DNA of 25,703 nucleotides from an archaeon (GCA_024277355.1 JAJRVL010000006.1:1-25703), one strand, 5' to 3'. Positions 13,213-22,545 are shown, counted from the first letter of the stretch. The notes: generated by a model not told the origin, from the sequence alone. Numbers and translations are program-made.

Positions 13213-13230
13213 ATTTCTTTTCGTTTTTTG
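13213..13230 (+). terminator. Putative oligo-T terminator after pyrC
   Basis: ATTTCTTTTCGTTTTTTG directly follows the pyrC stop. Archaeal termination commonly uses T-runs. Confidence 0.35.
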
Positions 13231-13249
13231 TCGTTGCATTCCATTTAAA
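13219..13249 (+). repeat. Direct repeat copy 1 (TTTCGTTTTTTGTCGTTGCATTCCATTTAAA)
   Basis: 28 of 31 nt identical to 14975-15005, in the same orientation. Lies between the pyrC stop and the 3' end of the lipoprotein cassette. Confidence 0.6.
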
Positions 13250-13250
13250 T

Positions 13251-13287
13251 GTTTTAGAAGAAATTAGCATCCGCATGCTTCTAAAAC
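13251..13287. terminator. Perfect 10-bp inverted repeat at the convergent pyrC / lipoprotein gene junction
   Basis: GTTTTAGAAG (13251-13260) and CTTCTAAAAC (13278-13287) flank a 17-nt loop and span the lipoprotein stop codon. This could be a bidirectional terminator hairpin, but a 10-bp AT-rich stem could also arise by chance. Confidence 0.3.
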
Positions 13288-13719
13288 TTCTTCTTTAGTC
13301 ATGTTTAATTGGTTTAGTTCTTGTTCTGTTAAATCAGCTGTACAGTTAGCACTTATTAATTTACAATAAGGAACATAATTTGTTTGACATTTGTTTTCTT
13401 CACAGCTATTATCTTCTAATATTGTTAAAGATATTCTTGATGGTTCTCCTTCAATTTTGCAGTCTGAACAGTTTTCTGTTTTCCATTGATTTATTTTTTC
13501 TGCAGATTCTTTATTTACTGATATAAAATCTGGGTTAAATAAAGAGCAACATTTTAATTGAACTACTTCACAATCTTCATCTGCTTCACAATATTTTTCT
13601 TGTGCTGTTATTTCTTCAGAATAAGCAATCAAGTCAGTATTAGGTTCATTAAACTGCAAACAACCACTAAAAAAGATTGCTAAAAATATAACTGTTATTA
13701 AAATTATTTTTTTGTTCAT
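13264..13719 (-). CDS. Cysteine-rich secreted lipoprotein (lipobox FFSGC), unknown function
   Basis: 151 aa. Signal peptide MNKKIILITVIFLAIFFSGC. The mature part contains 12 further cysteines (CC, CxxC-like spacings) and is acidic. The promoter motif TATAAAAACTTTAG (plus-strand reading) lies 22 nt from the ATG, with no SD. Confidence 0.65.
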   Translation of the reverse strand: MNKKIILITVIFLAIFFSGCLQFNEPNTDLIAYSEEITAQEKYCEADEDCEVVQLKCCSLFNPDFISVNKESAEKINQWKTENCSDCKIEGEPSRISLTILEDNSCEENKCQTNYVPYCKLISANCTADLTEQELNQLNMTKEEVLEACGC

Positions 13720-20162: not shown

Positions 20163-20710
20163 TGAGAAATAAATTGATTTTAGGAATAATATTAATTTTT
20201 TTATTTAATTTAGTTTCAGCTGAAGTTGGAATAGACTACAACGCAGAAGGAAATTATTACAAGTTATTTAATGACTATCAAGATTATTATATTGATGCAG
20301 AAACAGGAATAGACTTGACTAATGATTATTATAATTTTTGGAGCAAAAAAGAGTTTTGTTTGGAAGTAAAATCAGGACCAATTCAGGGAAAAAAATGTGT
20401 TTCTGAGATTCCTTTGGAGTGGACTACTGAAGAAAACGAGTTTTATGTTAAACTAACAGGAAACTTAGATTTTGTGGGTAGTGTTGCTGATTTTAATTTA
20501 GTTTATTTTTTAGGAGTAAATGATGAAAGGTTGACTATTACTCCTCAGACTAAAACAAAAAAGAAATTAGATTACATGAAATTATCAATAAAAGACTATA
20601 ATATTAGAGTTAACAGGGATTATGGAAATGATTTTTTTAAGTTAGATTATCCTTATTATGAAGATTTTTCTATATCTAATGGAACTTATAATGAATACAA
20701 TAATGTTTAA
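20159..20710 (+). CDS. Secreted protein, N-terminal segment (signal peptide); same frame as the next ORF across a single TAA
   Basis: 183 aa with signal peptide RNKLILGIILIFLFNLVSA. The start (TTG 20159 or ATG 20162) overlaps the stop of the giant gene (TTGATGA), suggesting translational coupling. Ends at TAA 20708-20710. Confidence 0.6.
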   Translation: MMRNKLILGIILIFLFNLVSAEVGIDYNAEGNYYKLFNDYQDYYIDAETGIDLTNDYYNFWSKKEFCLEVKSGPIQGKKCVSEIPLEWTTEENEFYVKLTGNLDFVGSVADFNLVYFLGVNDERLTITPQTKTKKKLDYMKLSIKDYNIRVNRDYGNDFFKLDYPYYEDFSISNGTYNEYNNV

Positions 20711-20725
20711 GACAATTATTATAAT

Positions 20726-22495
20726 TTGTATGATTTAAGTGAAGGGGAAATTGATTTTTGGTGGGATAATTATTATTATTTGAATGGAGAGTATTTGTTG
20801 TGGGAAGATGAAAACTTAACTGCTGCATTTAATTTAAGCAGAGAAAAAGATTTTGTTGTTATTGAGTTAACTTCAAATGAAATACCAAAGAATGCTGTTT
20901 TTGAAACTAATTTTTATTGGGTTGATGCTGGTTCAGGCGGCTGTAATATTTTAGGAGTTACTATGGAGTCAATTCCTGCGAGCTATGAAGGAGAACAAAG
21001 TACAGTTAGTTGTTCTTGGGATTTTGATGGAACTGACTGTCCTGATGAAGTTAGATGGGAGACAAATGAAGGAGTTAATGGAAGTTGGATTACTTTGCCT
21101 CCAACAGATACAAATGATTTTGGAATAAATTGCGGGGCATTAGTTAATCAGTATAAAGATTATGGGTTGAATACTTATTCTTTAGTGGCTTTAACTTGTT
21201 ATAAAAGTATTTTTGGTTCTGGTTTTGATTCAGCTTATGTTCAGTGCGGAGATGATTCAAATGTTTCAAATCATACTGCAAGATGTGCTTTGTATAAAGA
21301 TGGTTCGTTTAAGGCTTCTTCTTTAACAAAGACTGCTGTATGTAAAGAAAAAATTTTATTAGATTTAGACTGGATTAATCCTTTAAGTGATTTCACTGAA
21401 GCAGGAATTGATAGAAATATTATAGTTCAGGGAAAGACAACTTGTACTGATGGTTACTGCGGGGATACAAATTCGTTTTTGGAGTGGTGTAAGGGTTTAA
21501 GTTGTAATGACTGGAAAGACGTTAATAGTTCTTCAGGAGAAATTGTTTTTGTTCAGGGAAGTAATCCAGTTCAGGCAGATTTGAATATAACAGATTTTTA
21601 TGATTTAAACTGGATGATTAAAATTGATGTAAACGAATTAAATCAGGATTATGAATTAAGGTTAAAAACTTTATCAGAGTTTGCACCGCAAGAAACAACT
21701 TCAGGAACTGACAGAACTATAACAACAGGAAACCCACCAACAACAACAAGTGATGTAAATGGAAACTGGCAGAATGTTGATGCAAACATTCATTTAACTT
21801 GTTTAGATGTAAATGGAATAGGATGCGATAAAACATATTATTTAATTGATAATCTGCCAGGAAAAGACACTAATTATGGAGACTTAAATTTTGTGGAATG
21901 GCAGGAATATAATTCAAATTTATTAATTTCAACTGACGGAAACACAGGAATATTGTTTTATTCAGTTGATTTAGTTGGCCATATTGAAAGCATTACAGAA
22001 GAATTTATTTTGATTAACAAAACACAACATTTTTTATTAACAGAAAATTATTTACCTAATCCAAGCAATTCAACTAAAAATTTTGTTAAATTATTAGATG
22101 GAAATTTAAGTTTAAGTTACTGTTATTACAATGGAACAAACTTTGGTGATGCATATTTTATGAAGTCAGTTGACGGATTAAACTGGAATACTCCAATTCA
22201 AATTAATTCTTTAGGAAGTTGTTCAGGTTATTACAGTGAAAATGAAATTGAACCTTTTAGAACAGGAGAAGGAGGAATAACCTCAACAAGAAATTCATTT
22301 AACGATTTATTCTTTTTGTTTACTGAATGGAATGGGTTACAGGCATGGACTAAAATTTTATATGCAAACCAAACCTGGAGCAACGAAACACTAATCAGCA
22401 GTAACGCAGGAAAAAGCCCTCAAAAAGACTCATTAAACATTATTGTTGACTCAAATAACTCAATAAATTATATTATCACACAAAAAACCACATAA
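20726..22495 (+). CDS. Cys-rich extracellular-type protein lacking its own signal peptide; probable continuation of 20159-20710
   Basis: 589-aa ORF opened only by a TTG, with no SD, and the first ATG codon is ~79 codons in. It has many cysteines. An Ig-like module (NGNWQNVDANIHLTCLDVNGIGCDKTYYLID...ILFYSVDLVGHIE) is typical of surface proteins. The C-terminal module has SVDGLNWN, similar to STDGLTFN in the giant protein. Confidence 0.6.
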   Translation: MYDLSEGEIDFWWDNYYYLNGEYLLWEDENLTAAFNLSREKDFVVIELTSNEIPKNAVFETNFYWVDAGSGGCNILGVTMESIPASYEGEQSTVSCSWDFDGTDCPDEVRWETNEGVNGSWITLPPTDTNDFGINCGALVNQYKDYGLNTYSLVALTCYKSIFGSGFDSAYVQCGDDSNVSNHTARCALYKDGSFKASSLTKTAVCKEKILLDLDWINPLSDFTEAGIDRNIIVQGKTTCTDGYCGDTNSFLEWCKGLSCNDWKDVNSSSGEIVFVQGSNPVQADLNITDFYDLNWMIKIDVNELNQDYELRLKTLSEFAPQETTSGTDRTITTGNPPTTTSDVNGNWQNVDANIHLTCLDVNGIGCDKTYYLIDNLPGKDTNYGDLNFVEWQEYNSNLLISTDGNTGILFYSVDLVGHIESITEEFILINKTQHFLLTENYLPNPSNSTKNFVKLLDGNLSLSYCYYNGTNFGDAYFMKSVDGLNWNTPIQINSLGSCSGYYSENEIEPFRTGEGGITSTRNSFNDLFFLFTEWNGLQAWTKILYANQTWSNETLISSNAGKSPQKDSLNIIVDSNNSINYIITQKTT

Positions 22496-22545
22496 CTTAA
22501 AAAAACAAAAGAACAAATTAATTAAGGGAAAGTTAAGGTGAAATA

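Follow-up and report, generated by a model that had tools for sequence, protein, structure and literature searches.

A secreted-protein block inside the pyr operon of an Iainarchaeum-like archaeon is probably a lineage-specific mobile insertion

Why are the pyrimidine genes pyrBIC and pyrEF of a small archaeal genome separated by a block of sequence in which nothing appears to be metabolic? The locus lies on contig C4 of a metagenome-assembled genome (GCA_024277355.1, here G000) of a DPANN archaeon in an Iainarchaeum/Diapherotrites-like genus. The genome spans 1.13 Mb in 11 contigs, is 96% complete and has a guanine plus cytosine (GC) content of ~28%; the window analysed here is the whole of C4 (JAJRVL010000006.1, 25,703 nucleotides (nt)). 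FtsZ is encoded upstream of the pyr genes (Pfam), which all lie on the plus strand: pyrB (10445–11416; Pfam OTCace_N/OTCace), pyrI (11413–11892; PyrI/PyrI_C), pyrC (11899–13212; Amidohydro_1), pyrE (22546–23208; Pribosyltran) and pyrF (23215–23931; OMPdecase). An earlier note, made from the sequence of the window alone, had described these five genes and the non-metabolic block between pyrC and pyrE (13213–22545), and had read the block as an accessory cell-surface island inserted in a pyr cluster. Pfam confirmed the gene assignments, no metabolic or housekeeping family matched within the block, and no intracellular housekeeping homologs of the block proteins were found.

Gene order in relatives answered whether the block or the operon came first. 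We sought pyrC, pyrE and pyrF in 40 relatives and found pyrC and pyrE on one contig in 28, of which 20 had the two genes on the same strand within 100 base pairs (bp) of each other. Within the genus (G001–G005) the gap was 10 bp in G002, 15 bp in G003 and 55 bp in G004, and within the family it was 0 bp in G006 and 21 bp in G007, compared with 9.3 kb in this genome and 10.1 kb in G005. The pyrC stop codon abuts the pyrE start in G002, G003 and G006 (an ATG in the first two). Tight spacing characterized three of the five genus representatives and most of the order, the OMP-decarboxylase gene (pyrF) followed pyrE throughout the order, and gaps of 1–3 kb in other families held pyrD or pyrK (G018, G011) or unrelated genes. 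Orthologs of pyrB, pyrI and pyrC were 63–86% identical and identically ordered in G001–G005, where those of pyrE and pyrF had 75–84% identity. Because pyrC, pyrE and pyrF adjoin one another across these relatives, pyrB-I-C-E-F is the ancestral operon order and the block is an insertion. It is missing at the orthologous site, with the flanking genes adjacent, in close relatives, as in a genomic island, and only G005 had a homologous block at this site; the island interpretation of the earlier note is thereby borne out. Separately, a genome from another family of the order (G027:C33, locus L014) has two signal-peptide open reading frames (ORFs) between pyrC and pyrE, of 157 amino acids (aa) and >324 aa.

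The earlier note had also offered the reverse scenario, in which pyrEF were inserted into a pre-existing surface-protein locus. Secreted proteins do stand on either side of pyrEF in G000, and pyrE and pyrF of the genus are a distinct subtype, but the scenario is contradicted by the pyrC-pyrE-pyrF order across the order and by G001, G002 and G005, in which pyrF is directly followed by deoA. We consider it close to untenable.

Our preferred explanation, which we regard as probable, is that the block is a lineage-specific mobile accessory insertion in the ancestral pyr operon, a remodelled and partly decayed mosaic without a type IV secretion system (T4SS) that would encode a cell-surface complex and be read through into pyrEF. 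Its core is a predicted cassette of divergent small lipoproteins, a giant secreted protein and a translationally coupled secreted partner. Such cassettes would come from a genus-wide mobile gene pool and land in intergenic spacers inside operons, and the pyrC/pyrE spacer itself would have been repeatedly occupied by T4SS-type elements.

Traces of such occupancy were found in G005 and G001. The G005 block consists of a lipoprotein, a DUF6438-like protein, a 1908-aa giant and an intact 708-aa partner; immediately after pyrC stand the first 38 codons of a pilin gene (residues 1–38), 89% identical to that on L048, a metagenome contig (ENA ERZ27247117 k141_113068, 304–18228). In G001, pilin residues 32–60 run into the pyrC stop codon, and next comes a HATPase_c_4 gene with 77% identity to the one beside the L048 cassette. 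These fragments argue that two or more genomes of the genus have had T4SS-type elements in the pyrC/pyrE spacer. The G000 site held no T4SS remnant. In the tree of giant proteins G005 grouped with G002_C16 (support 100/100), and an approximately unbiased (AU) test rejected a clade of G000 and G005 (p = 2.5e-6). This rejection, a partner N-terminal domain and a 37-nt motif in common with G001, and leftovers at the G000 rib locus together point to a mosaic G000 island whose cassette type matches that of G001 at ribBA/ribD.

The homologous block in G005, along with native-like GC and synonymous codon usage in G000, would suit an old, stable block that was already present in the ancestor of the genus and disappeared from the other genomes. 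That history is highly unlikely given the tight pyrC-pyrE junction across the order and in three of five genus representatives, with stop and start abutting in three genomes, the presence of the cassette at no fewer than four other sites, and pyr-locus giants that are not sister sequences. A further alternative is an assembly artefact, in which C4 would be a chimera joined at a repeated promoter segment. The genome is metagenome-assembled, a 121-nt segment of the block recurs on contig C2 at 92.6% identity, and C4 shares its final 156 nt with the beginning of C6 at 97% identity. However, G005 is an independent assembly of another sample with the same pyrC-cassette-pyrE order, both junctions in G000 are internal to a single contig and bordered by unique sequence on each side, and the repeat is short and imperfect, so that we give a chimera almost no credence.

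Beyond the pyr locus, the cassette was present at a minimum of four sites, and upstream of the giant and partner pair the opposite strand usually encoded a small Cys-rich protein or other lipoproteins of small size. One copy in G002 lies between orthologs of C2:388163 and C2:388441, which are adjacent in G000, and a second adjoins orthologs of G000 C10:54.8 kb. In G001 the cassette extends from ribBA on C54 (locus L059) through C57 to ribD on C5: C54 holds ribBA, a homolog of lipoprotein 1 (the pyrC-proximal lipoprotein of G000), the motif and the giant N-terminus, C57 the giant C-terminus and the partner, and C5 the partner end and ribD. The ribBA/ribD junction, adjacent and empty in G002 and G003 and filled by a full cassette in G001, is another insertion hotspot. 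Its G000 counterpart (C2:163702–165156) has a Yip1/DUF6438 gene, a 98-aa lipoprotein gene and the motif directly upstream of ribD, with no giant or partner gene; the lipoprotein is 58% identical to one beside the L048 giant gene. Inserts of other kinds at this junction were a toxin-antitoxin-like pair in G004 and a large ORF in G005.

Two assemblies link the cassette to T4SS genes. On G004:C53 (L038/L043) and L048 it is adjoined by genes for VirB4 (P-loop_TraG/DUF87/AAA_10), a PrgI/TraC-like protein, TrbC/T4SS_pilin and RDD, and L048 also has HATPase_c_4 and a tyrosine integrase (Phage_integrase). A candidate AbiE-like toxin-antitoxin pair on G004:C53 was recognised by eye only. L048 further encodes a 326-aa membrane protein and DUF6438. 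The two loci may represent an integrative T4SS element of Iainarchaeia. In none of the T4SS loci examined, these two included, could a relaxase or coupling protein be identified, and a circularity check of G004:C53, L048 and L049 (another metagenome contig with a giant gene) gave no terminal overlap. The VirB4 family has >1000 homologs, many of them labelled Diapherotrites, and was present in one of five genus representatives; tblastn searches of the 96%-complete G000 genome, the window included, detected neither VirB4 nor PrgI nor pilin, and the cassette persists in genomes without VirB4. Related VirB4 loci (P0012, P0014) had ArdC, restriction-modification and toxin-antitoxin genes and no giant cassette. 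The T4SS cluster is part of a mobile element, and since its relatives do without the cassette, the cassette is cargo and not core T4SS. Found in differing intergenic spacers across genomes, and beside a T4SS in two assemblies, the cassette thus belongs to a mobile gene pool of the genus.

A short motif recurs at these insertions. The earlier note had reported a 31-nt direct repeat on the pyrC-proximal side of the block; the repeat is real and longer than described, with 37 nt at 86% identity (13219–13255 and 14975–15011) and a 23-nt core that had 0 matches in 100 shuffles. The motif (TTTCGTnnTTTGTCGTTGCATTCnnTTTAAA) had four copies in G000 and two in G001, and was not found in G002–G005 at up to 2 mismatches. 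Copy 1 (C4:13219–13255, plus strand; TTTCGTnnTTTGTCGTTGCATTCnATTTAAA) lies 6 nt past the pyrC stop, is aimed into the 3' end of lipoprotein gene 1, and may be either an orphan promoter-like element or a junction scar. Copy 2 (C4:14975–15011, plus strand) is upstream of the giant gene, in the divergent spacer that this gene shares with lipoprotein 3, and the segment 14975–15094 joins it to a TATA-like box (TTTAAA, 14999–15004), a GAGGGGGA ribosome-binding site (RBS) and the first 38 nt of the giant gene, which starts with TTG. The copy upstream of the giant gene in G001 (C54:3697–3719) has the same layout, and upstream of giant genes TTTAAA is followed ~45 nt on by a GAGGGGGA-type RBS and then a TTG start. 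This order of box, RBS and start codon makes a promoter the simplest reading of the motif in front of giant genes, and copy 2 would be the promoter of the giant-partner operon. The other copies mark the edge of the ribBA/ribD insertion in G000, aimed at ribD (C2:163656–163692), the edge of an insertion upstream of an ATP-binding cassette (ABC) operon in G000, aimed at the ABC ATPase gene (C2:171889–171925), and the edge of a toxin-antitoxin-like insertion in G001, aimed into the inserted pair (C21:37982; L060 3983–4005). Every copy stands at an accessory-insertion edge or upstream of a giant gene.

The repeated promoter segment is the stretch 14975–15094, which matches G000 C2:171933–171813 at 92.6% identity over 121 nt, the giant's first 38 nt included; the C2 copy lies upstream of the ABC-transporter ATPase gene. 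Beside it we observed a lipoprotein 3 paralog and a toxin-antitoxin-like gene pair, whose counterparts are missing from G003; its ABC ATPase gene directly adjoins the neighbouring conserved gene. At the pyr locus, copies 1 and 2 bracket the three-lipoprotein module, as a single crossover at the motif would yield.

Taken together, the rib locus and the motif invite a different route, in which the cassette moved alone from ribBA/ribD to pyrC/pyrE in the G000 lineage, by recombination at the shared 37-nt motif and without relation to the T4SS remnants of G005 and G001. The G001 ribBA/ribD cassette is of the same type (lipoprotein 1 homolog, motif, giant, and a partner that shares the N-terminal domain), the Yip1/DUF6438 gene, 98-aa lipoprotein and motif persist at the G000 rib locus without giant or partner, two motif copies enclose the three lipoprotein genes of the pyr locus, the G000 island shows no T4SS trace, and the giants of G000 and G005 are not sisters. 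On this account, however, three genomes of one genus with different inserts in the same 10–55-bp spacer would reflect coincidence or an unexplained site preference. In addition, no recombinase is linked to the motif, and the motif layout is simpler as a promoter travelling with cassettes. We consider a move of this kind a serious possibility, though an improbable one. Rather doubtful is a more far-reaching idea, in which the motif would be more than a promoter: the joining site of an undescribed cassette-shuffling system of Iainarchaeia, which would also give severed genes an outward promoter and would use T4SS/integrase elements as its vehicle between genomes. If true, surface-protein, lipoprotein and toxin-antitoxin-like modules would move among the spacers of essential biosynthetic operons, those used being pyrC/pyrE, ribBA/ribD and the one upstream of the ABC transporter.

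As the earlier note had claimed, three lipobox proteins of the block are encoded on the opposite strand: these small minus-strand ORFs (142–153 aa) have signal peptides that end in lipoboxes FSGC, LSGC and FSGC at residues 17–21 (pattern [LVI][ASTVI][GAS]C), and their lipidation is predicted from sequence. Lipoprotein 1 (13264–13719; 151 aa, lipobox FSGC, 8.6% Cys) had no Pfam or NCBIfam match, and its homologs lie beside the giant gene in G004 (155 aa, 35% identity), G002 C54 (156 aa, 43%) and G001 C54 (161 aa, 42%). Lipoprotein 2 (13898–14359; ~152 aa, lipobox LSGC) is a tandem paralog of lipoprotein 3 (14500–14928; 142 aa, lipobox FSGC), with 36% aa identity between them. The 5' parts of the two genes and their upstream regions (14222–14403, 14794–14976) repeat with a 572-nt period at 77–79% nt identity, the pattern of a tandem duplication of both genes together with their upstream regions. 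Lipoprotein 2 was 39% identical to a 173-aa homolog in the G005 island. Lipoprotein 3 had aa identities of 44% to a lipoprotein of the G005 island and 39% to one beside the L049 giant gene, and 76% nt identity to G000 C2:172325–172785. These lipoproteins may act as membrane-tethered helpers.

The giant gene (15057–20162, plus strand) encodes 1701 aa from a TTG start. The earlier note had called its product a secreted, protease/adhesin-like protein, and the secreted and adhesin-like part of that description held: a signal peptide was read from the sequence, and Laminin_G_3 (89.9 bits; cut-off 27.6), CARDB (27.9; 22.7) and HYDIN_VesB_CFA65-like_Ig (26.7; 25.5) scored over their Pfam cut-offs. 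The signal peptide is followed by a variable N-terminal region of ~196 aa, immunoglobulin (Ig)-like and CARDB domains, a conserved HExxH region, Ig-like and HYDIN-type Ig domains, a CARDB domain with an inserted LamG, CARDB-like domains and a conserved C-terminal domain. No membrane anchor was found in the giant or the partner protein. A search of 5.8 billion clustered proteins yielded just nine family members, and no functional name is attached to any of these. Among homologs the N-terminal 200–380 residues are wholly different while the core and the last ~400 residues are conserved; the N-terminus has a BNR-like region in G004 and G005 (by eye, from Asp-box motifs) and other domains in G000 and G002. 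The G000 gene is intact and has the longest branch of the giant tree.

The one pointer to a protease, which we advance as a hypothesis, is the HExxH motif of the giant. In its A-H-E-x-x-H-T stretch the A, H, E, H and T are invariant in seven homologs, and an M-G downstream is invariant too, but the homologs do not conserve the Gly at +8 and the His/Asp at +11 of metzincins. All peptidase Pfam matches were sub-threshold (Reprolysin_4/5, DUF4953, M10 and M7; E = 0.004–0.09) and confined to the HExxH helix, and a profile search of this region found no peptidase among PDB sequences. Searched against the PDB, the family profile gave LamG and CARDB-like matches only. AlphaFold2 models were confident solely on the Ig/CARDB-like domains: residues 197–760, which contain the HExxH region, had a mean predicted local distance difference test score (pLDDT) of 49.7, with values <50 over model residues 210–494, and the C-terminal 412 aa averaged 62.1, with the conserved C-terminal domain <50.

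The partner gene (20159–22495, plus strand) begins within the giant's stop codon (ATGA overlap), an arrangement that suggests coupled translation of the two proteins and a complex between them. The earlier note had described a secreted reading frame of ~778 codons here. It is indeed a single frame of 778 codons, but it is not open: an in-frame TAA at 20708–20710 splits it into a 183-aa N-terminal piece, which alone has the signal peptide, and a 589-aa piece without one. An intact ortholog in G001 spans both pieces at 57–64% identity and has CTA (Leu) at the position of the TAA, frame conservation continues past the TAA, and one change from TTA suffices for the stop. Other intact homologs have 708 aa (G005), 828 aa (G004), 708 aa (L048) and 764 aa (L049). 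The TAA may mark a gene only just inactivated, reflect an assembly error or be read through, and the Leu codon in G001 and the conservation beyond the stop make the first, a fresh pseudogene, the probable case. One of the two large genes of the block is thus interrupted. The partner N-terminal domain had high identity in G001 only (57–64%), with weak identity to L049 (27–38%). A relationship between the giant and partner C-terminal domains was considered and found no support (hhalign probability 0.3%). If both proteins are exported through their Sec signal peptides, they may form a binding and possibly proteolytic complex on the cell surface, and domain content would suit the host- or substrate-contact role that the earlier note had suggested for the block.

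Downstream of the partner, the 50-nt spacer before pyrE (22496–22545, plus strand) has no sense-strand oligo-T run and carries the RBS AAGGTGA. The pyrE RBS is GGTGAAA in G000, G001 and G004, with the variant GAAGTGAAAAA in G005, and T-runs follow pyrC at 13213–13232. The T-runs after pyrC, and the retained RBS without a T-run before pyrE, make it most likely that pyrEF, severed from the operon promoter, would be transcribed by read-through from the island.

The genes themselves show subtype differences. pyrF of the genus and of G008 belongs to a distinct OMP-decarboxylase subtype, with PF00215 scores of 170–190 bits compared with 60–130 bits in other members of the order, and pyrE is 48–55% identical inside the family and 33–40% in the remaining order. 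This suggests that pyrE and pyrF may have been replaced by a different subtype, and the conserved pyr gene order implies that any such replacement would have happened in place. G005 has an extra 269-aa minus-strand ORF without a Pfam match between pyrE and pyrF (L021, G005:C97, 14830–15639).

Past pyrF, a plus-strand gene for a secreted beta-helix protein with a weak NosD match (23976–25703) is open at the contig end. This gene, a further accessory insertion, separates pyrF from deoA, which in G000 lies at C10:815. The first feature of contig C10 (1–2332) is a surface-protein C-terminus with a transmembrane anchor, and deoA comes next. C4 ends in 156 nt that are 97% identical to the start of another contig (C6:1–156), so the contig break falls within a repeated Cys-rich module.

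Composition set the block proteins apart, as the earlier note had seen by eye. They had 30.7% N+Y+D+S, 12.9% K+E and 1.95% Cys, compared with 16.4%, 22.8% and 0.91% in the flanking proteins. At the nucleotide level the picture was mixed: the tetranucleotide distance of the block was at the 99.4th percentile of genome windows, but its GC content was normal (28.5% vs 28.0% for the genome) and its pooled synonymous codon distance reached the 88th percentile only. The deviation is mostly driven by the amino acids of secreted proteins, and normal GC and 88th-percentile codons give no signal of recent foreign origin. An Rfam scan of the window had no match, and no integrase, relaxase or coupling protein was found in it. 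No target-site duplication or inverted repeat surrounds the whole island; the 37-nt repeat brackets the lipoprotein module only.

Several observations weigh against a mobile insertion with a T4SS-type past. Within the G000 island there is neither a T4SS nor an integrase, transposase or tRNA, and no target duplication flanks it, so any descent from a T4SS element would be indirect. Its native-like GC and codons fit long residence or exchange within the genus and do not suggest that the block came in recently from outside. Within the genus the pyr-locus tree lacks resolution and places the empty-site G003 as sister to the occupied-site G001, which means that a single integration would need clean losses and that the alternative is several integrations. 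Nor do G001 and G005 share the same pilin breakpoints. The history of the site is accordingly either one old pyrC/pyrE integration followed by decay and cassette replacement or repeated independent insertions into a preferred spacer. Lastly, the functions proposed for the proteins derive from their domains, with sub-threshold peptidase matches and pLDDT <50 in the HExxH and C-terminal models.

The locus shows that large accessory surface-protein modules can be accommodated in a core nucleotide-biosynthesis operon even of a 1.1-Mb DPANN genome. It ties a narrow giant-protein family (~9 sequences) to T4SS/integrase-type mobile elements in Iainarchaeia, and through this link genes for cell contact could pass from one of these archaea to another. 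The genus also offers sites that occur naturally in both empty and filled form, and together with a candidate promoter/junction motif and a probable pseudogene one mutation after inactivation, these make the consequences of splitting an operon, for evolution and for expression, testable. A mobile-element remnant with adhesin-like genes is a well-known and ordinary kind of feature; what is new here, as detail, is the giant-protein family, the junction motif and the connection to an archaeal T4SS element. Our literature search returned no description of this cassette and turned up T4SS work in Patescibacteria and a general archaeal 'dark matter' paper.

Among known systems, islands derived from integrative and conjugative elements (ICEs) of monoderm bacteria and archaea, with a T4SS of the MPF-FATA type (MPF, mating-pair formation; VirB4, PrgI/VirB3 and a VirB2-like pilin), often carry surface adhesins such as PrgB of pCF10. 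The cassette resembles these in adjoining VirB4, PrgI/TraC-like and TrbC-like pilin genes on G004:C53 and L048, with an integrase on L048, and in the remnants of such an element at pyrC/pyrE in G005 and G001. Unlike them, the G000 island is without T4SS, integrase, relaxase and attachment (att) sites. Monoderm T4SSs depend on surface adhesins for cell contact (PMC12102498). The cassette described here, by contrast, is missing from related VirB4 loci, which makes it cargo and not a proven mating adhesin, and it had no sequence similarity to PrgB-type adhesins in any search made.

Giant proteins offer a second comparison. SPEARE proteins of Nanohaloarchaeota and other giants of DPANN and candidate phyla radiation (CPR) organisms are very large and secreted, combine adhesion-type domains with a putative protease, and lie in variable regions of reduced genomes, with a proposed role in cell contact. 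The G000 giant differs from the SPEARE type in its CARDB, LamG, HYDIN-type Ig and HExxH content, in having no membrane anchor or nuclease domain, and in a family restricted to ~9 sequences. Among solved structures, the family profile matched only the LamG modules of an S-layer-domain protein (4qvs, E = 4.6e-7) and of pappalysin-2 (E = 1.1e-3). Pappalysins pair LamG with an HExxH protease, but here the match is confined to LamG, and the HExxH region of the giant has no significant match to a peptidase family or structure. Integrons and cassette arrays provide a third comparison. There is no integron-type integrase here, the cassettes are scattered and not arrayed, and the motif is simpler as a promoter; the likeness lies in a short motif that recurs, in both G000 and G001, at the 5' edge of otherwise unrelated modules, namely the giant cassette, lipoproteins and a toxin-antitoxin-like pair.

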